Assembly (NCBI GenBank): GCA_050125095.1
Contig: JASFEA010000037.1
Span: 1 to 23,100 of the forward strand
Reading direction: 5' to 3'
DNA: 23,100 nt
DNA from: a bacterium
GTDB taxonomy: Bacteria; Arandabacterota; Arandabacteria; Arandabacterales; JALGWA01
The translations under genes were made by a program, and so were the position numbers. Under the pieces are notes generated by a model. It made no database searches, was not told where the DNA came from, and was given only the letters and a program-made list of their open reading frames with translations. Below, piece by piece: positions 4,183-12,560 of this stretch; position 1 is the stretch's first letter; every line of letters begins with the position of its first letter.

Positions 4183-5934
4183 GTGAGAGATACCATTGAA
4201 AGGACTCTGACCAGGCTGCTCGTCGTGGCCGCGGTGCTGGCTGCGGCCTCGCTGATAGCCCAGTACGGTTTCTACCTGCCCCAGCGGTATCTCGATTACC
4301 TGATATATGTCGATGTCGGGATCATCATCTTTTTCGTGGCCGAGAACTTCGTAAGGCTCGGCATCAGCCGGGAGAAGCTGGAGTACCTGAGGTCCCACTG
4401 GGTGGACTTCATGTTCATCCTGCTTTTCTTTGCCCAGATCATTCTCATCCGCTTTTTCTCGAGGACGCATACGGTCGAGACATTCCTTGCGAAGCTAAAT
4501 ATAGTCTCGCTCACCAAAGCCTACATAGTCACGGTTCAGGTCTACATGGCTATTGCGCTTTTCATCAAGACGATTGACGCCAACAGGTTCATTGCGAGAT
4601 TCAGGATATCCCCTCCGCAGATGGTGCTCGGGAGTTTCGCAGCGGCGATCATCGCGGGTACTTTCCTGCTGCTGCTGCCCCGCGCCACGTCGACCGGGCA
4701 ATCCATGCCGTTCGTCGACGCGCTGTTCACGGCCGCCTCAGCGACCTGCGTCACGGGTCTTATCGTGGTGGACACGGGTTCGTTCTTCTCGCGCTTCGGC
4801 CAGATGATCATACTTCTTCTCATTCAGCTGGGCGGCATCGGCATCATGAGTCTCGTGGCCTTCTCGGCGGCGGCCATAGGCCGCGGCATTGGAATGCGCG
4901 AGCGCGCAATGCTCAAGGACATTCTCGATTCCAATTTCATCGGCGAGGTCACGCGCCTGCTCCGCAACATCGTGCTCATAACCGTGATATTCGAGACAGC
5001 CGGGGTGCTGCTGTTTTCCAGGATCTGGGCAAGAGATTTCCCGAGCCCCATGACCACCGTATACTACTCCGTGTTCCATTCGATTTCGGCGTTCTGTAAC
5101 GCGGGATTCTCGCTCTTCTCCGACAGCCTGGAGGGATTCAGGGCCAGGCCGGACGTTGTCTTCACCTTCGCCGCCCTGATCATAATAGGGGGGCTCGGCT
5201 TCATAGTGATCTCGAACCTCTTCCGCTACTTCCTCGGAGTACTGGGAAGGGCCAAACCCAGGCCGAGGTTGAACCTGCATACCAAGATAGTGCTGCTCAC
5301 ATCGGCCGCGCTTCTCATCGTGGGGACCGTGGCTTTCTACGCTCTCGAGATCGACGACTCCATGGCCGAATTCACCGGAGGCGAGAGGGCACTGTCGGCC
5401 TTTTTCAGCTCGGTCACGGCCAGGACGGCCGGTTTCAGCACGCTGCCGATGAGCGCCATTGCAGTCCCCACAGCTCTCCTGGTGGTCTTCCTCATGTTCA
5501 TAGGCGCATCATCCGGGGGCACGGGCGGTGGCATCAAGACCAATACATTCGCCGTTCTCATCGCCACCCTGAGGTCGATGCTCAAGGCCAGGCAGGATGT
5601 CGAGGTCTTCCACAGGGCCATACCGAGGGACATCATGGTCAAGGCGATATGCGTGGTGATCCTCTCGGTCGGTCTGGTTTTCGCGACGTCACTGGTGGTG
5701 GCGACCTACGAGCGCATCGGGTTTACGGACATCCTGTTCGAGACGGTGTCGGCTTTCGGAACGGTGGGACTCTCGCGGGGCCTTACCCAGGGCTTGACTA
5801 CCCCCAGCAAGGTGGCGATAATCATAACAATGTTTCTGGGCAGAATCGGCCCGCTCACGCTGGGCCTTGCTATAAGTCAGAGAGTATATGAACAGACCTA
5901 CAGATACCCCACGGAGAGGGTGATGATCGGTTAG
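4183..5934 (+). CDS. ktrB: TrkH/KtrB family potassium uptake membrane subunit with extra N-terminal TM segments
   Basis: Four pore-loop motifs: 'SATCVTGL', 'SAFCNAGF', 'TARTAGF', 'SAFGTVGLS'; also 'GASSGGTGGGIK' and C-terminal 'YRYPTERVMIG'. Confidence 0.92.
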   Translation: MRDTIERTLTRLLVVAAVLAAASLIAQYGFYLPQRYLDYLIYVDVGIIIFFVAENFVRLGISREKLEYLRSHWVDFMFILLFFAQIILIRFFSRTHTVETFLAKLNIVSLTKAYIVTVQVYMAIALFIKTIDANRFIARFRISPPQMVLGSFAAAIIAGTFLLLLPRATSTGQSMPFVDALFTAASATCVTGLIVVDTGSFFSRFGQMIILLLIQLGGIGIMSLVAFSAAAIGRGIGMRERAMLKDILDSNFIGEVTRLLRNIVLITVIFETAGVLLFSRIWARDFPSPMTTVYYSVFHSISAFCNAGFSLFSDSLEGFRARPDVVFTFAALIIIGGLGFIVISNLFRYFLGVLGRAKPRPRLNLHTKIVLLTSAALLIVGTVAFYALEIDDSMAEFTGGERALSAFFSSVTARTAGFSTLPMSAIAVPTALLVVFLMFIGASSGGTGGGIKTNTFAVLIATLRSMLKARQDVEVFHRAIPRDIMVKAICVVILSVGLVFATSLVVATYERIGFTDILFETVSAFGTVGLSRGLTQGLTTPSKVAIIITMFLGRIGPLTLGLAISQRVYEQTYRYPTERVMIG

Positions 5935-5946
5935 GAGGATACATAC

Positions 5947-6585
5947 GTGGCGAGGCAGAGAGGCACCTCAAAACCTGAGAAAAAGACAAAGGTGAAGCGT
6001 TCGGGAGCCGGGCGGACGGGGGCTGCGGCTCGCAAGAAGTCCGCGCGTCCGAAAAAGACGGTTACGCGACGCAAGAAGACCGCCGCAAAGCCGGCCCGCA
6101 AGGCCGCCGCCGGTGTGCGCAGGAAGGCGGCCGGTGCAAAGAAGACAGCCCGCAAGGCCGCGAAGAAAGTGCAGAAGACCGCAGCCAAAAAGGTCGTCAA
6201 GGTCCGCAAGGAAATGTCAAAAGCCGCCAGGGAGAGGATGGAAAGGCTGAGAACCATGCTGGAAGAACGCCGGACCGACATACTGGCCAGCATAAGGAAA
6301 GCCCGCGAGGACAGCGTGGAAGCGCACCGCCGCACGTTCTCCGAGGTGGGGGACCTGGTGTCGGCCTCGCTGGAGAAGGAGATGGCCTTCAAATACGGCG
6401 AATATGGCGTAAATATGCTAAGGGAGATAGACTCAGCGCTCGAAAAGCTTAAAGAGGGGAGTTATGGCGTCTGTGAGGAATGCGGCAAGATGATCGGGGT
6501 CAAGCGGCTCGAGGTCGTGCCGTTCGCCAGGCTCTGCATCAAGTGCAAATCCAAGGAGGAGGAGGGGACAACGGGCAACCGCTAG
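5947..6585 (+). CDS. TraR/DksA C4-type zinc finger protein with long Lys/Arg/Ala-rich N-terminal extension
   Basis: 'IDSALEKLKEGSYGVCEECGKMIGVKRLEVVPFARLCIKCK' C4 zinc finger preceded by a coiled coil; strong RBS AGGAGG; first about 90 aa low-complexity and basic. Confidence 0.88.
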   Translation: MARQRGTSKPEKKTKVKRSGAGRTGAAARKKSARPKKTVTRRKKTAAKPARKAAAGVRRKAAGAKKTARKAAKKVQKTAAKKVVKVRKEMSKAARERMERLRTMLEERRTDILASIRKAREDSVEAHRRTFSEVGDLVSASLEKEMAFKYGEYGVNMLREIDSALEKLKEGSYGVCEECGKMIGVKRLEVVPFARLCIKCKSKEEEGTTGNR

Positions 6586-6601
6586 CCCGAAAGGAAACAT
6601 A

Positions 6602-6630
6602 TTGACGAAATCCACTATCCGCGTTATAGT
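6602..6630 (+). promoter_or_regulatory. Sigma70-type promoter for the small secreted protein/TPR-activator unit
   Basis: TTGACG-N17-TATAGT. Confidence 0.7.
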
Positions 6631-6665
6631 GGAGTATGAGAGGATGTAGTTGGAGGCCATTTGTT

Positions 6666-6959
6666 ATGAGACCTAAATGGCTGGTAGTTCTTGCTGTTCT
6701 CCTTATCCTGTTCAGCTGGTCCGCGGTCTTTGCGGGACCCAAGGGCGAAGTTGGGCACGGTGACGATGACATTCCCGAACTGACGAAGCGCAGGAGTTCG
6801 GTCAGTCTCCAGAGACTTGTCGATGCTCTTGAGGTGGAATCCGTCTGGAATGCTATCTTCCGTGTGGAACCGGAACGGCAGCAGGAACTCGGCAGACGGA
6901 TGGACGCCAGGAGCGTCAGCAAGCCTGCTACACGAAGGTATCCTGTCAAGTCGAAGTAG
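6666..6959 (+). CDS. Small hypothetical secreted protein (97 aa) with Sec signal peptide
   Basis: ATG 6666 follows GGAGG (6653-6657). MRPKWLVVLAVLLILFSWSAVFA has a basic N-region, hydrophobic core and VFA cleavage site. It has its own promoter and fills the intergenic gap. Confidence 0.65.
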   Translation: MRPKWLVVLAVLLILFSWSAVFAGPKGEVGHGDDDIPELTKRRSSVSLQRLVDALEVESVWNAIFRVEPERQQELGRRMDARSVSKPATRRYPVKSK

Positions 6960-7012
6960 GAACAGGTTACTGACGAGGTTTCACCCTTCATGTAGGCGGG
7001 GAAAGGGTGACA

Positions 7013-10000
7013 ATGCCTGGAAAGCGTGAAACCAACCCCTCGGGGCGGGAAGGGTCTAACGACCCTGATGACAGAGTAGGAGTGTCTTTCGAAGAACTCG
7101 GCGAGTTCTGTCTCGCCAGTGGTGAGTTCTCGACCGCCATAGAATACTTCACAAAGGTACTTACCAGTTCAGACCTTCCTCCCGAGCAGTGCGAGCACCG
7201 CGCTTCGGTATTGAGAAAGCTCGCCATGTGCTATATGCAGATCGGCGAGTGCGACCATGCCCTGGAGATTCTCCACAACGCTTTCGGACTTATCTCCGAC
7301 GGTCAGGACCCCGTCGAGCTTTCTCGCATCATAATCTACCGCGCGTGGGCCCACTTCAAGCGGGGCGAATACGATCTGGCGCAGGCCGACTGCGAGGCCG
7401 TGCTTGAGATCCTCATCGATGAGGACAAGGAAAAAGAGCTGGCAAAGACATACAACTGCCTCGGGGCGGTATGCCTGAGGAAGGGCGGCAACGAGAAGGC
7501 TCTCGACTTCTACCGCTCGTCGCTGTCGATGTCGCGCCTCATAGAAGACCGCGACATGGTGGGAACCAGTCTTAATAATATGGGTATCGCCTGCAAGAAC
7601 CTGGGGCGCTGGGAGGAATCCCAGAAGTACCTCGAAGAGGCCCTGCGCATAGCCGAAGACCTCGGGCAGCACATGCAAAAGGGTGTGAGGCTCAATAACC
7701 TCGGCATCATCTACTCCAAGCGGGGGCTATGGAGAAGGGCGTACAAGTGCTGGAGCGAAGCTTTCAGCATTCTCTCCAGAATGGGCAACCGCCGGGAGGC
7801 CTATTCCGCCTGCCGGAACATAGGCCACTACTACATGACGTACCGCAATTTCGACCGGGCCGAGGAGTACTACGTCCGCGCCATGAATGAGAGCGCGGAG
7901 CGCGGCGACATGCGCTGCTGCGCCCTGAGCCTCGAGTTCGTTGGTGACGTTCACATGGCCCGCGGGCGGCTCGACCTGGCATATGAGCGCTATATGGAAG
8001 CCCTCGGAGTAGCCGAGGAGATGGCTCCCAGGGGCGATGTCGTCGTTGAAGTGAAGCGGCGCCTGGCCGACCTTGAAGTGGAAAGGGGTAATTTCGAGGC
8101 CGGGCTCGAGCACGCGTCCTTCGCCGTTGAAGTCGGCGGCGAGATAGAGGACGTGTTTGAGGAGGCCTGCTCGCTGCGCTCCAAGGCGGCCGCCCAGTTC
8201 ATGCTGGGTGAGTGGGAGCGGGCCCGTACGGAGTTCAAGCGGGCCACCGACGTGCTGGAATCGATAGGCGAGAAAAAAGAGCTCGGCCTGACGCTCTTGA
8301 GGGCCGGGACCCTTTACTCGACCCAGCAGTCGAGCCTCGAACTGGCTGTCGAATACCTCAACAGGGCGCTTGCCATATTCGAGGACCTGGGTATGGTTTA
8401 TGAGGCGTCGCTCTGCGTCCTCGAGGCGGCCTGGATTGCAGCCGGGCAGGGAGAGGTCGAGAAGTGCCGCAAGGCGCTCGCGATGGTCGACGAGATTCAT
8501 GGGGGCTACGCGCCCTCCGAGATAAGGGACCGCATGGAAGACATAAAGAGGGAAGCCGACGAGAGACTGTCCTGGCTTTCGGTCAACAAGTCGAGTAATG
8601 TGGTTGACCTGAGCTGGGTGATTGAGAACGTGCTCGCCGAGGGCAGCGGGGGCGGAGGTCTGGGGATAGCCCTGGACGCCTGCCTCAGGAAGACCTCGGC
8701 CGACAGGGGGCTGATTCTCTTCAAACCGGGCGATGTTTCGAAGGTTCTGGTTTCCAGGAACTTCGAGTCTGACGAGTGCGCCGATCTGGTTCCCGTTGTG
8801 GAGGAGATGCTGCTCGTCGCCCGCAACTCTGACATGCCGGTCGTTACGACATGCATCGGCGAGGACAACAGATTCAACTCAAGGCTGCCCGACTCGGCGC
8901 CGCTGTCTGCTCTCTGCGTGCCGCTTGGCGCCGGCGACGACAAGGTGGGCTGCATATACCTGGACGCCTCCGTTGGAGACAAGTTCTTCGAGCGGGCCGA
9001 GGTGGAGTTCGTGGTCGCCCTGAGCGGCATATTGAAAAACGTGCTTTCGGAGGCCGCCGCGGGCGAGGCGCGCGCCTCGGGCAAGTACAGACCCAGCGCG
9101 CCGGGGACGACGTGCCGCTTCCACGGCATAGTGACCCGCAATAAGAAAATGCTCGAGATCCTGGACGCCGTGAAGTTCCTCAAGAACACGTCTGCCACCG
9201 TCCTGATCGAGGGAGAGACGGGGACGGGCAAAGAACTCCTGGCGCAGGCGATTCACAAGTCGAGCGGCAGAAGCAGCAAACCTTTCGTCCGCATAGACTG
9301 CTCGGCGCTCTCGCGCCAGCTGCTGGAGAGCGAGCTTTTCGGCCATGTCAAGGGCGCGTTCACGGACGCGCGCAGCGACAAGGCGGGCCTGTTCGAGATG
9401 GCCGACGGCGGAACGGTATTCCTGGACGAGATCGACAAGACCTCGAGGAAGTTCCAGGAGCGCCTGCTTCAGGTCGTAGACAAGCGTGAATTCAAACGCG
9501 TGGGATCGACCACTTCAAAGCAGGTGGACTTCCGCCTCGTATGCGCCACCAACAGAGACCTGGCTGCCCAGGTCAAGGCCGGCGATTTCCTGGAGGATCT
9601 CTACTACAGGCTGAAGGTCATATCCTTGAGGATACCCGCGCTCAGGAACCGCACCGAGGACATTCCGCTGCTTACCGAGCATTTCGTCAAGGTTCAGAGC
9701 GACAACCTGGGAAAGAGCGTGAGAGGCGTTTCCGGCGAGGCCATGGACATGCTTATGAATGCCGGCTGGCCTGGCAACGTGAGGCAACTGGAGCATGAGG
9801 TGGAGCGGGCCGTGACCTTCGCCCCGGACGGGGCGATCTTAGAGCCCGACCTCTTCTCCGACGAGATGCGCCGCGAGCCCGCCATGGAAGTGGGGGAGGA
9901 AGGCGTGGACATGGCCGAAATGGTGCGGAACCTCGAGAGCAGGATGATAAGGAACGCGCTCAGGCGCTTCAAGGGCAACAAGACCAGGGCCGCCAAGTCC

Positions 10001-10060
10001 CTGGGACTCTCCAGGCGGGGTCTATTGAATAAAATCCAGCGCTACAACATCTCTGTGTAA
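7013..10060 (+). CDS. Sigma54-dependent enhancer-binding protein: N-terminal TPR array, GAF-like domain, AAA+ domain, Fis-type HTH
   Basis: Many TPR repeats ('[26 protein letters not shown]', '[12 protein letters not shown]'), GAF-like 'LSALCVPL...VGCIYLD', Walker A GETGTGKE, '[15 protein letters not shown]', Walker B FLDEI, 'DLYYRL', 'WPGNVRQL', HTH '[14 protein letters not shown]'. Start is ATG 7013 or GTG 7007. Confidence 0.92.
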
Positions 10061-10162
10061 ACCTGCTTCACACCGCTTTTGTAACCCTCTTTCATAGCCC
10101 TGTGGGGCCCTAAGTCCCTATTTTCAAGGGTTTCCGCGAGTCCGCGTGAAAAGGTGTAACAC
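10055..10162. promoter_or_regulatory. Candidate upstream activator sequences (two 17-bp GTG-N11-CAC imperfect palindromes)
   Basis: GTGTAAACCTGCTTCAC (10055-10071; reverse complement GTGAAGCAGGTTTACAC) and GTGAAAAGGTGTAACAC (10146-10162), about 100-200 nt upstream of a sigma54 promoter. Confidence 0.4.
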
Positions 10163-10214
10163 AAGTGTGGCGCTCGCGTAGCTCTTGTTTGACGTTCGCA
10201 AAATGGTCCCGCGC

Positions 10215-10227
10215 TAACTTGTTGAAA
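10215..10227. promoter_or_regulatory. IHF-like binding site
   Basis: TAACTTGTTGAAA (reverse complement TTTCAACAAGTTA), 12/13 identical to the site at the hsp20 promoter and 36 nt upstream of the -24 element. Confidence 0.6.
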
Positions 10228-10263
10228 TGGCGTCAGATAATATGGCATCGCCGCCTTTCTCCC

Positions 10264-10279
10264 GGGCATAGAAATTGCA
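10264..10279 (+). promoter_or_regulatory. Sigma54 (-24/-12) promoter of the sigma factor gene
   Basis: GGGCAT-AGAAA-TTGCA keeps the invariant GG-N10-GC spacing, about 86 nt upstream of ATG 10366. Confidence 0.7.
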
Positions 10280-10365
10280 TTATGCAATGAGTGACTGTTG
10301 GCTCCAATCGGGTGATGTGTCCGGATGAAGTCCCAAGAGAATAGACATCAAAGAGGTGGACTGAC

Positions 10366-11313
10366 ATGCGGTGCCGAAAGATTGTCGTAGACGATGAGAG
10401 CTTCACGCTTCCCACCCGGGAGGACAGGAAGTCGGGCGGCAGAGCGGATGGTGATGTCCCGGCCCTTGGCTCCAGGGCTTCGGCCGAGTCTTTAAGTGTC
10501 TACATGAAGGCCATCAGCCGCATCCCGCTTCTGACCAAGAGGCAGGAGAGGGAACTGGCAGCCCGCGCCAAAAAGGGTGACCGCCATGCGCGCGACATGA
10601 TGATCAAGGCCAATCTCAGGCTCGTGGTGGCCATAGCGCGCAGGTACAGGGGAATGGGCCTTCCCCTGAGCGATCTCATCAGCGAGGGCAATCTGGGCCT
10701 TATCAAGGCCGTGGAACGCTTCAAGCACGAGAAGGGCTTCCGCTTCAGCACCTATGCCTCGAAGTGGATTCGTCAGGCAATCACCAAGGCGCTGGCAGCT
10801 GACAGCAGGACGGTCAGGTTGCCCGCCAATGTAATAGAGCTCATGAGAAAAGCCAGAACCGCAGAGCAGGTTCTCTCCAAGGCCAGGAACGAGACTCCGG
10901 GCAGCGATGAGGTCTGCCGGAGTATCGGCATATCCTCGAAGCGATATGCACAGATTGCCGGGGCATCAACTACGGTCTCGCTCGATTCCCCGTGCACGCC
11001 CGACAGCGAGGTGAGCCTCTATGAGGTCATCGCCGACGCCCATTCACGGCCGCCGGATGAGGTCGTGGGCAGGCGGCTGGACTCGGGGCGGCTCGAAGAG
11101 CTGCTCGAGAGCCTCTCCAAGAGGGAGAGAGTGATTCTGTCCTACAGGTTCGGACTGGAGGACGGGAACCTCAGGTCCCTCGAAGAGACGGGCCGCATGA
11201 TCGGCATCACAAGGGAACGCATCAGGCAGATCGAGAAACGGGCCATCGAGAAGATGCGCAGGATGCTCAAGCGTCGCAAAATGGAAAAGCTCCTCATGAC
11301 AAAAGACGAATAG
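10366..11313 (+). CDS. RpoD/SigA-family sigma70 factor lacking region 1.1 (alternative group 2-like sigma factor)
   Basis: Region 1.2 '[16 protein letters not shown]', region 2 '[52 protein letters not shown]', region 3 'TVSLDSP', region 4 '[29 protein letters not shown]'. Confidence 0.92.
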
Positions 11314-11325
11314 CTTTTGTCTGCC

Positions 11326-11376
11326 GGGATTGCGCTTCCGTTCTCCCCGCAACGGGGGCGCAATCCCTTGCGTTTT
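11326..11376 (+). terminator. Rho-independent terminator-like hairpin after the sigma factor gene
   Basis: GGGATTGCGCTTCCGTT/AACGGGGGCGCAATCCC forms a 17-bp stem with two G-U pairs, followed by TTGCGTTTT. Confidence 0.7.
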
Positions 11377-11377
11377 A

Positions 11378-11406
11378 TTGACATCCCCCTGTGCCACCTT
11401 TAGTAT
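11378..11406 (+). promoter_or_regulatory. Sigma70-type promoter of amrS
   Basis: TTGACA-N17-TAGTAT followed by RBS GGAGGT. Confidence 0.7.
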
Positions 11407-11426
11407 TTAGGTGGAGGTAAAACTCG

Positions 11427-12560
11427 ATGCCTGGCATGGATAGGCGCGCATTCCTGGGAAGAATGGGGCTGGGCGCATGCGCCGTGGCGAGCGGCGGGCT
11501 TGTGCCGGCGACCCTCATTGCGGGTGACAGGTTCCTTGGCTCGCCCTATGTCAAGGAAGCCCTCTTCTACGAGAAACTCGACGACAATTTCGTTCGCTGC
11601 CGCATCTGCCCCAGGGAATGCGTCGTCGGACCGGGGCAGCGCGGTTACTGCCGCGTCAGGGAAAACTACGAAGGCAAGTACTATACCATCGTGCACGGGC
11701 GCGTCTGCGCCTATCATGTCGACCCCATAGAGAAGAAGCCTCTATTCCATTTCCTTCCCGGGACGACGGCGTTCTCCATAGCCACCGTGGGCTGTAACCT
11801 GGAGTGCAAGTTCTGCCAGAACTGGGAGATCTCGCAGGAAGTGCCCGAGAATGTGGGCGCCACCAATATGTCCCCCGAGAGGGTGGCCGCGGCGGCGGAG
11901 AAATACGGCTCGCCCACCATCGCCTACACGTATACGGACCCCAATGTCTTCTACGAGTTCGTACTCGACTGTGCCCGGGCGGGGCATGAAGAGGGCCTTA
12001 GAAGCGTAGTGATCTCGGCGGGTTATCTCAACAGGGAGCCGCTCCTGGGTTTCATCTCCAACCTGGACGCCATGAAGATAGACCTGAAATCATTCAAGGA
12101 CGATTTCTACAGGGACATCTGCGGCGCGAGGCTAAAGCCCGTGCTCGATACCATAACCACAATCCGGGACAAAGGCCTGTGGCTCGAGATAGTGAACCTC
12201 ATGATCCCGACGCTCAATGACGACGAGAAGGAAGTGGACGCGATGTGCAAGTGGATCGTCGAGAACCTCGGCGACGACGTGCCGGTTCACTTCACGCGTT
12301 TCTATCCCAAGTATAAGCTCAAGAACCTTCCGCCCACGCCGGTCTCCACGGTGGAGCGGGCCCGCGAGATAGCGCTTGCCAGGGGCATGAAGTTCCCGTA
12401 CGTCGGCAACGTCCCCACGGGCAATCCGGGCGAGTCGACCTACTGCCCCGGCTGCAATGAAATGGTCATAAAGAGGGCGGGCTACGCCGTGGTCTCGATT
12501 GATCTCATTGACGGCAAGTGCCCCAGGTGCGGCACCGCGATCCCCGGCGTCTGGTCCTAG
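11427..12560 (+). CDS. amrS: AmmeMemoRadiSam system radical SAM enzyme with N-terminal twin-arginine signal
   Basis: 'VRCRICPREC...GYCRVREN', 'VDPIEKKPLFHFLPG', CxxxCxxC 'GCNLECKFCQNWEISQ', 'VPVHFTRFYP', C-terminal 'TYCPGC...GKCPRCG..IPGVW'; N-terminus 'MDRRAFLG' plus a hydrophobic stretch. Confidence 0.9.
   Translation: MPGMDRRAFLGRMGLGACAVASGGLVPATLIAGDRFLGSPYVKEALFYEKLDDNFVRCRICPRECVVGPGQRGYCRVRENYEGKYYTIVHGRVCAYHVDPIEKKPLFHFLPGTTAFSIATVGCNLECKFCQNWEISQEVPENVGATNMSPERVAAAAEKYGSPTIAYTYTDPNVFYEFVLDCARAGHEEGLRSVVISAGYLNREPLLGFISNLDAMKIDLKSFKDDFYRDICGARLKPVLDTITTIRDKGLWLEIVNLMIPTLNDDEKEVDAMCKWIVENLGDDVPVHFTRFYPKYKLKNLPPTPVSTVERAREIALARGMKFPYVGNVPTGNPGESTYCPGCNEMVIKRAGYAVVSIDLIDGKCPRCGTAIPGVWS

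Follow-up and report, generated by a model that had tools for sequence, protein, structure and literature searches.

A small, predicted exported protein paired with a TPR-GAF sigma54 activator beside an alternative sigma factor gene in Candidatus Eisenbacteria

The stretch of DNA analyzed here (hereafter the window; 23,100 nt of contig JASFEA010000037.1, designated C37, from a 3.35-Mb draft genome that is 91% complete) belongs to Candidatus Eisenbacteria. At positions 6602–11376, it contains a cassette of about 4.8 kb that consists of a promoter, a small open reading frame (ORF) for a putatively exported protein, a gene for a sigma54 activator with tetratricopeptide repeats (TPRs) and a GAF domain, site repeats, a -24/-12 promoter, a sigma factor gene, and a terminator. 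The question raised by this locus is what a small exported protein does beside a transcription activator of this type, and whether it may serve as the input of a regulatory cascade. An earlier note on this DNA had proposed an RRNPP-like peptide communication system, in which the TPR activator switches on a dedicated sigma factor, and every element that it listed is found in the sequence, at or near the position assigned to it. The cascade alone is ordinary and represents a known kind of circuit, because the Rrp2-RpoN-RpoS pathway of Borrelia is a textbook case. The pairing of the exported protein with the TPR activator is well supported and goes beyond this ordinary cascade. For the broader proposal that the cassette forms a lineage-specific regulatory unit of Candidatus Eisenbacteria with three linked steps, the chances appear evenly balanced.

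Each of the 17 other genomes examined from the phylum encodes a full-length relative of the activator, with identities of 82–87% within the genus, 53–56% within the order, and 42–43% in two class-level genomes. In 18 of the 18 genomes of the phylum, the orthologous activator gene is preceded by the small ORF, and the gap between the two genes is 47–53 nt in the window. These counts include G001, where the small ORF is split over two contig ends, and G016, where the profile missed it at E 0.1 and an ORF with AAGP...GGDHDIPQ was seen. Because the whole region is syntenic in the order, such adjacency among orthologs is partly inherited. Given that ortholog synteny proves little, the argument for pairing is carried by the paralogs and by a blind scan of the genome. 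The paralogs are about 1000 aa long, have the same type of TPR domain, and show about 30% identity to the activator where measured; those checked are sigma54 activators, the AAA+ domain not having been checked at every locus. Among the 21 paralog loci, 20 are assessable (one starts at a contig end), and a small signal-peptide ORF with a GDxD-type motif is found directly upstream in 19 of these. In the window's own genome, a regular-expression scan of all stop-to-stop frames of at least 60 aa for GD[PDH]D downstream of a signal-like segment returned only two matches among 26,725 frames, and both are located immediately 5' of TPR activator genes (on contigs C37 and C3). Furthermore, five of the six weak profile matches elsewhere in the phylum are directly upstream of a TPR match. 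The motif variants track the paralog groups, namely GDPDI[VWF]E, GDDDIPE (in the window's genus), GDHDIPQ, GDPDE[FVY]Q, GDHDIYQ, and GGDELES. The expectation that a small signal-peptide ORF would be found consistently upstream of the activator homologs is therefore borne out among both orthologs and paralogs. On this comparison of gene order and motifs, the conserved pairing argues for a signal/receptor-type pair, and functional coupling of some kind between the small protein and the TPR activator is likely. The literature searched holds no description of a TPR-GAF sigma54 activator or of its pairing with an exported protein, and none of the literature on Eisenbacteria, among the matches listed, concerns regulation.

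The second match of the scan belongs to a paralogous module on contig C3 (9687–5018, minus strand), in which a 91-aa signal-peptide ORF with the motif GDPDEVQ is followed 26 nt on by a gene for a 977-aa TPR activator. The third gene of this module, which encodes a protein of 435 aa that is LarA-like by eye, is preceded by a sigma70-like promoter of its own and lacks a -24/-12 element. Orthologs of the module are present in most genomes of the phylum.

The small protein carries a predicted signal peptide at residues 1–23 (6666–6734) and a predicted signal peptidase I site at VFA↓GP, called by hand rules. The signal features are a basic n-region, a hydrophobic core of 15–18 residues, an invariant Ala at -1, and Gly-Pro at +1/+2. 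A G-D-x-D-I motif follows six to eight residues past the Gly-Pro; in the window, it is part of G32–E38 (GDDDIPE, encoded at 6759–6779). Among the 36 database proteins compared, residues A23, P25, G32, D33, and D35 are invariant. The C-terminal tail is also conserved, and it is basic and contains proline (RRYPV, RLPxxS). The 36 database clusters of relatives range from 76 to 99 aa, including fragments of 76 and 80 aa, and 32 of them are of 95–99 aa. All are unnamed or annotated as hypothetical except for one evident misannotation. No Pfam or NCBIfam family was found for the small protein, and none of the 36 clusters has a Pfam family. Its predicted fold is poor (Atlas predicted local distance difference test score [pLDDT] of 0.59). 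In the ESM Atlas, the nearest feature clusters of this protein (P0138) are animal neuropeptide and prohormone precursors (0.85–0.91), a range that shuffled proteins also reach, and the resemblance to a secreted pro-peptide is a lead at most, a curiosity rather than evidence.

A poor predicted fold and the lack of a Pfam or NCBIfam family would also fit a small ORF and intergenic motifs that are products of chance or annotation artifacts beside an ordinary activator gene. This explanation is hardly credible and, as judged from sequence comparison, is contradicted by the data: the promoter, the Shine-Dalgarno sequence, the frame, the length, and the motif are all conserved, the motif scan gave only two matches among all frames of the genome, and contigs from RNA libraries that are identical to the window span the small ORF in four of four runs. 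The RNA evidence consists of contigs only, which indicate presence without ranking by depth and may include DNA carry-over.

The activator (Table 1) has a disordered segment at residues 1–27, TPR-like repeats at 28–522, a GAF domain at 532–690, an AAA+ domain at 708–874, a lid at 880–958, and an HTH_8 domain at 973–1013. Among Pfam families, TPR_12 is found in five stretches, together with TPR_1, TPR_2, TPR_MalT, AAA_lid_14, and HTH_8. The Sigma54_activat family (PF00158) matches residues 708–874 with an E-value of 1.1e-64, and this core contains the Walker A sequence GETGTGK and an FLDE-type Walker B. The best NCBIfam match is the NifA model (323 bits, below its cut-off of 528.85). No receiver (Response_reg) domain was found in the protein, and no kinase was found among the neighboring genes. 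For the gene start, the earlier note had chosen the ATG at 7013, which aligns with the orthologs, and the database record of 1017 aa uses the GTG at 7007 instead.

Across the whole protein, the scan gives only a weak GAF match. With the segment as the sole query, PF01590 reaches 23.8 bits (cut-off 22.4), and among the ortholog segments scanned in the same way, GAF_2 is found in 14 of 14 and GAF in 13 of 14. The model of this segment (pLDDT 78.6) has GAF domains as its top fold matches in the PDB, including those of the sigma54 regulators 3k2n, 4g3v, and 4g3k. A sequence search against solved structures was also tried and returned two chance-level rows only, such that the GAF assignment rests on the segment scan and the fold. 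In the AlphaFold2 (AF2) model of residues 1–700 (pLDDT 84.9), about 12–13 helical hairpins at residues 28–522 are followed by a GAF fold. The best 50 PDB fold matches of the TPR part found with Foldseek are generic peptide-binding superhelices, e.g., LGN/Pins, OGT, and APPBP2, which accommodate extended peptides along the groove. Because only such generic TPR superhelices were matched, Foldseek cannot separate families of peptide sensors.

Some relatives of the activator have other layouts. Very long activators, with open frames of 1650–1680 aa, are found on contig C67 (7502–9202) and, as similar frames, in G002–G012; their C-terminal part matches the TPR-GAF activator from about residue 400–450. 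In addition, a database relative of 1744 aa (P0113) combines protein-kinase, GAF, and Sigma54_activat families.

The output side of the cassette is located in and after the 305-nt spacer between the activator gene and the sigma factor gene. With TGGCAC-N5-TTGCA scored as the consensus over 11 positions, all 16 loci have a -24/-12 element with at least 8 of 11 matches at the homologous position, 206–257 nt past the activator stop codon, and 12 of the 16 reach at least 9 matches. The genome-wide chance rates per 300 nt of one strand are 0.086 for at least 8 matches and 0.011 for at least 9. Two candidate upstream activator sites (UAS2 and UAS1) lie about 120 and 200 nt upstream of the promoter, respectively, and in sister genera UAS2 is a palindrome, GTGAA-N6-TTCAC. 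Between UAS2 and the promoter is an element that we take to fit the consensus of integration host factor (IHF).

The same sigma factor gene follows the activator gene on the same strand in all 16 loci that reach far enough, the window counted. Its product lacks region 1.1 in the domain scan and is RpoS/RpoD-like; it scores 262.9 bits against the RpoS model TIGR02394 (cut-off 378.7) and 253.2 bits against NF004207 (cut-off 394). Falling below every NCBIfam equivalog cut-off by these sequence models, it is not filed as RpoS. It is presumably not the primary sigma factor, given that a 595-aa open frame on contig C3 is the likely RpoD. RpoN is encoded in the genome (459 bits, which exceeds the cut-off). 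Both class-level genomes keep the activator, the promoter, and the sigma factor gene, and no DksA match was found upstream with the query used; the link between activator and sigma factor therefore does not rest only on frozen synteny. Because the -24/-12 promoter recurs downstream of the activator gene in every locus that includes the sigma factor gene (16 of 16), the sigma54-to-sigma cascade that the earlier note described is well supported. From these sequence patterns, we consider that the activator very probably drives such a cascade.

Table 1. Coordinates of the cassette features in the window.
Feature	Position	Strand	Basis or remark
Sigma70-type promoter TTGACG-17-TATAGT of the small ORF/activator operon	6602..6630	+	10/12 matches
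Shine-Dalgarno sequence GGAGG of the small ORF	6652..6656	+	GGAGGCG kept in 13/13 aligned loci
Small exported protein, 97 aa, predicted Sec signal	6666..6959	+	ORF; identical to 97-aa database protein P0138
Inverted repeat TCACCCTT-N14-AAGGGTGA	6981..7010	+	Invariant core GCGGGGAAAGGGTG
Sigma54 enhancer-binding protein, 1015/1017 aa	7007..10060 (GTG 7007 or ATG 7013)	+	Domain scans, models
Candidate UAS1 TTCAC-N9-GTAAC, right after the activator stop codon	10067..10085	+	Regular expression in 13/16 loci, same offset
Weak terminator-like hairpin and T-rich tail past the activator gene	10104..10128	+	5-pair stem
Candidate UAS2 GTGAA-N6-TAAC	10146..10160	+	Loose regular expression in 16/16 loci, 85–108 nt past the stop codon
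IHF-like site TAAC-N3-TTGA, between UAS2 and the promoter	10215..10225	+	Regular expression in 11/16 loci, same offset
Sigma54 promoter GGGCAT-AGAAA-TTGCA	10264..10279	+	GG 10265–10266, GC 10277–10278
Alternative sigma70-family factor, 315 aa	10366..11313	+	Regions 1.2, 2, 3, 4
Intrinsic terminator of the sigma factor gene	11326..11376	+	17-pair stem (11326–11367), T-rich tail

Two further observations concern sigma factor genes and their leaders. On contig C46 (about 4240–6540; L078 1411–3711, minus strand), the same genome contains a second sigma54-to-sigma arrangement, in which a shorter sigma54 activator (with the loop GAFTDA) is followed by AGGCACACCCATTGCA (10 of 11 matches to the consensus), located about 55 nt before the gene for a 297-aa sigma factor with regions 2–4; the next gene encodes a hybrid histidine kinase/receiver. 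In the sister family f2 (L004–L012, L014, and L015), a block AGCCYCTCGTCTC is found about 25–40 nt 3' of the -12 element, in the 5' untranslated region of the sigma factor gene. The window's genus lacks this block, which possibly acts as a regulatory RNA element.

On the input side, the operon promoter is the top sigma70-type match within 5900–11700, and all 13 of the aligned upstream regions share it without change as ATTGACAA-N17-TATAGT; in each of them, GGAGGCG sits 7–10 nt 5' of the ATG of the small ORF. No terminator-like site was found at 6959–7007, between the small ORF and the activator gene, and one RNA contig (X7, 6649–7095) extends from the small ORF into the activator gene. Pieces of the sigma factor gene are covered by RNA contigs in three of the four runs. 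RNA contigs of two studies both start at 6649, 19 nt past the -10 hexamer, which is only a weak hint. Gaps between RNA contigs (e.g., 9991–10318) were not used for or against any start site.

The inverted repeat located between the small ORF and the activator gene shows higher conservation than the flanking coding sequence, and its 3' arm reaches across the ribosome-binding region into the start of the activator gene. Its core GCGGGGAAAGGGTG occurs once in the window's own genome and is kept in all 15 loci of the window's order that span the region; it is absent from the class-level loci L017 and L018. From its sequence, the repeat may be an RNA hairpin or a DNA operator. Given that it includes TTCAC, the half-site of the upstream activator repeats, it is possibly an autoregulatory operator. 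The minimum-free-energy structure of 6940–7040 does not contain the conserved repeat, and the stability of this segment is not unusual (z 0.08).

The position of this repeat brings in another explanation for the small ORF. SecM, MifM, and VemP are secretion-monitoring leader peptides, and the small ORF may be a leader of this type, such that its export status would open a hairpin over the ribosome-binding site of the activator gene and the cassette would report export or envelope stress. As these systems are generally known, the resemblance lies in two features, namely an export signal in an upstream ORF and a structure that would cover the ribosome-binding site of the next gene. The small ORF has an N-terminal signal peptide, it is directly upstream in the same operon with no terminator-like site found in between, the invariant repeat overlaps the activator start in all the order-level loci, where variant copies, read by eye, would retain G-U pairs, and the C-terminal tail is conserved, basic, and proline-containing. 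However, the best-conserved motif is beside the signal peptide rather than at the C-terminus, and the downstream gene encodes a transcription activator rather than an export component of the Sec/YidC kind. Moreover, the 5' arm of the repeat begins 21 nt past the stop codon, which we take to be beyond the reach of a terminating ribosome, the repeat is absent at the class-level loci and missing from the predicted fold, and the gap in the C3 paralog, the one paralog checked, is only 26 nt and leaves no room for it. Taken together, these points make the leader explanation improbable.

With the small protein regarded instead as the cognate partner of the TPR sensor, and most likely its input signal, we infer its export, processing, and binding, the direction of control, and the regulon as parts of the following three-step model. 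In the first step, the strong sigma70-type promoter would transcribe the exported protein and the cytoplasmic activator together. In the second, a permissive state of the TPR-GAF part would allow the activator to assemble on the two repeats beside its own gene, and an IHF-type bend would help it to remodel the sigma54-RNA polymerase at the -24/-12 promoter. In the third, this promoter would yield the RpoS-like sigma factor, which would redirect RNA polymerase to its regulon. The motif A↓GP-x5/6-GD[P/D/H]D-I just past the cleavage site would be the part that is recognized or processed, and the acidic GDxD motif would suit the groove of a TPR superhelix. Omp85 homologs are present in the genome (10 matches) and the organism is a diderm; the product of export is expected in the periplasm because the genome encodes proteins of the Omp85 family. 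The signal may then take either of two routes. A processed fragment may re-enter the cell, as in the RRNPP logic, with the single SBP_bac_5 peptide-type binding protein of the genome as a possible uptake component, or the activator may sense the precursor that is not yet exported. A co-fold of activator residues 1–700 with mature residues 24–97 gave a score of 0.00 with the partner at pLDDT <50 and was made without controls, and it informs neither way. That the TPR domain directly binds the small protein, or a fragment of it, is held only tentatively, at somewhat less than an even chance.

Several points weigh against the small protein as the input signal of such a cascade. For the small protein, the mature part is 74 aa and is conserved end to end within the genus, unlike the short, tail-derived peptides of RRNPP systems, and its motif is conserved rather than hypervariable. 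Given that the organism is a diderm, a re-imported signal must stay in the envelope or cross it. For the activator, the sigma54-contact loop (residues 783–788) reads GAFTDA rather than the canonical GAFTGA in 14 of 14 orthologs; the same variant is found in two other activators of the genome (C46 and C212), and the paralogs mostly have GAFTGA. For the comparisons, the genes from the DksA-like gene through the radical SAM gene are all syntenic within the order, the 16 loci are mutually related rather than independent, the 18 genomes represent few independent lineages, and one paralog (G003:C31) has no such upstream ORF. Finally, four paralogous activators have no -24/-12 element of at least 8 of 11 matches before their downstream LarA-like genes, which have sigma70-like promoters instead. 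Because of this last result, the statement that the activator controls the next gene is limited to the copy in the window.

The cascade may also be real without the small protein as its input. The latter would then be a co-transcribed envelope or secreted product, or the partner of another component, that the activator does not sense, and the TPR-GAF part would answer to another cytoplasmic protein or to a small molecule. The GAF domains of other sigma54 activators are sensors of small molecules or redox state, and the GAF domain adjoins the AAA+ core here. TPR superhelices take many protein partners, duplication of the operon could by itself have brought a small ORF with each paralog, and a long mature protein conserved throughout is consistent with this possibility. 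However, the pair has remained intact through divergence of the paralogs to about 30% identity while the flanking genes changed, and the motif family is found only beside TPR activators in the window's own genome. Moreover, motif variants that differ by paralog group fit specificity better than a shared envelope role. On balance, an unsensed small protein appears rather unlikely, and a cognate partner of the TPR sensor is preferred.

The genes that flank the cassette are housekeeping genes. Upstream are genes for PhoU, TrkA, a class II aminoacyl-tRNA synthetase, TrkH, and a 212-aa DksA/TraR zinc-finger protein, and downstream are genes for a radical SAM protein, MoeA, a MoCF_biosynth-domain (molybdopterin-binding) protein, RecD2, and UvrA. 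The DksA/TraR zinc-finger protein (5947–6585) has a long N-terminal extension, and its gene is directly upstream of the cassette across the order. The radical SAM gene (11378–12560) has its own TTGACA-17-TAGTAT promoter and is syntenic 3' of the sigma factor gene within the order; the N-terminus of its product resembles a twin-arginine signal (RRAFLGRMG).

Enhancer-binding proteins are known to respond to input through domains such as receiver, GAF, PAS, and V4R. Sigma54 control would gain a new type of input through the pairing of an exported protein with an activator that has TPRs at its front, and this pairing represents a candidate for peptide or protein signaling in an uncultured diderm phylum. 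More broadly, candidate phyla of the diderm FCB group may have a class of encoded signals and receptors that evolved independently of the RRNPP systems of Bacillota, in which a GDxD pro-protein is read by a TPR-GAF sigma54 activator, with several private channels per genome and, in the window, an RpoS-like sigma factor as the gated output; this generalization is speculative and at present seems unlikely rather than probable. If true, a self-produced exported signal would gate a global transcription program in response to cell density, confinement, or envelope retention. The cassette, at about 4.8 kb, is compact and can be rebuilt in Escherichia coli, such that the question is testable without culturing the organism.

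Among known systems, the output side is most readily compared with the Rrp2-RpoN-RpoS pathway of Borrelia burgdorferi, a two-sigma cascade in which an activator acts on a sigma54 promoter to yield RpoS (PMC2940757; PMC3037356). The two systems share a sigma54 promoter directly 5' of the gene for RpoS or an RpoS-like sigma factor and a dedicated activator. The earlier statement that the arrangement in the window is not a characterized system is therefore half right, in that a sigma54-to-RpoS cascade is known in Borrelia. The differences are on the input side and in the layout: Rrp2 is an NtrC-like response regulator in those accounts, whereas the activator described here has TPRs plus a GAF domain, no receiver domain, and no nearby kinase, and its gene, the sites, and the sigma factor gene are contiguous, with a co-encoded exported protein, in another phylum. 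The order GAF-AAA+-HTH_8 is the same as in NifA, Nlh1/Nlh2 of Aquifex, and the Chlorobium regulator 3k2n. Unlike the GAF activators of the NifA type, the protein in the window has a TPR superhelix of about 500 aa before the GAF domain, and its targets are not nif genes.

For the input side, the closest comparison is with the RRNPP systems of Bacillota, their phages, and their plasmids (Rap-Phr, NprR-NprX, PlcR-PapR, Rgg-SHP, and AimR-AimP). Their published signature consists of a propeptide of 10–100 aa, Sec export, a receptor of 250–500 aa, TPRs, and adjacent genes, and genetically encoded peptide signaling that relies on TPR receptors in the cytoplasm is considered characteristic of Bacillota and their mobile elements (PMC10075063). 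Measured against that signature, the RRNPP-like reading stands for the small propeptide, the TPRs, and the adjacency; it does not stand for the receptor, which is of 1015–1017 aa rather than 250–500 aa. No RRNPP receptor is found among the best 50 Foldseek PDB matches of the TPR part, and hidden Markov models specific to RRNPP were not run. Furthermore, the output here is a sigma54 AAA+ ATPase rather than an HTH domain or a phosphatase, the motif is located N-terminally in the mature protein, and the host is a diderm. Because receptor size, output, motif position, and envelope differ, and no receptor homology was seen among these fold matches, the cassette is not filed as RRNPP. Nevertheless, it resembles these systems in four of the five signature points (the small propeptide, an export signal predicted by hand rules, the TPRs, and the adjacency), with a small gene for a putative propeptide with a predicted Sec signal beside that of a cytoplasmic TPR regulator. 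The likeness also extends to the presence of several paralogous pairs per genome, each with its own motif variant.

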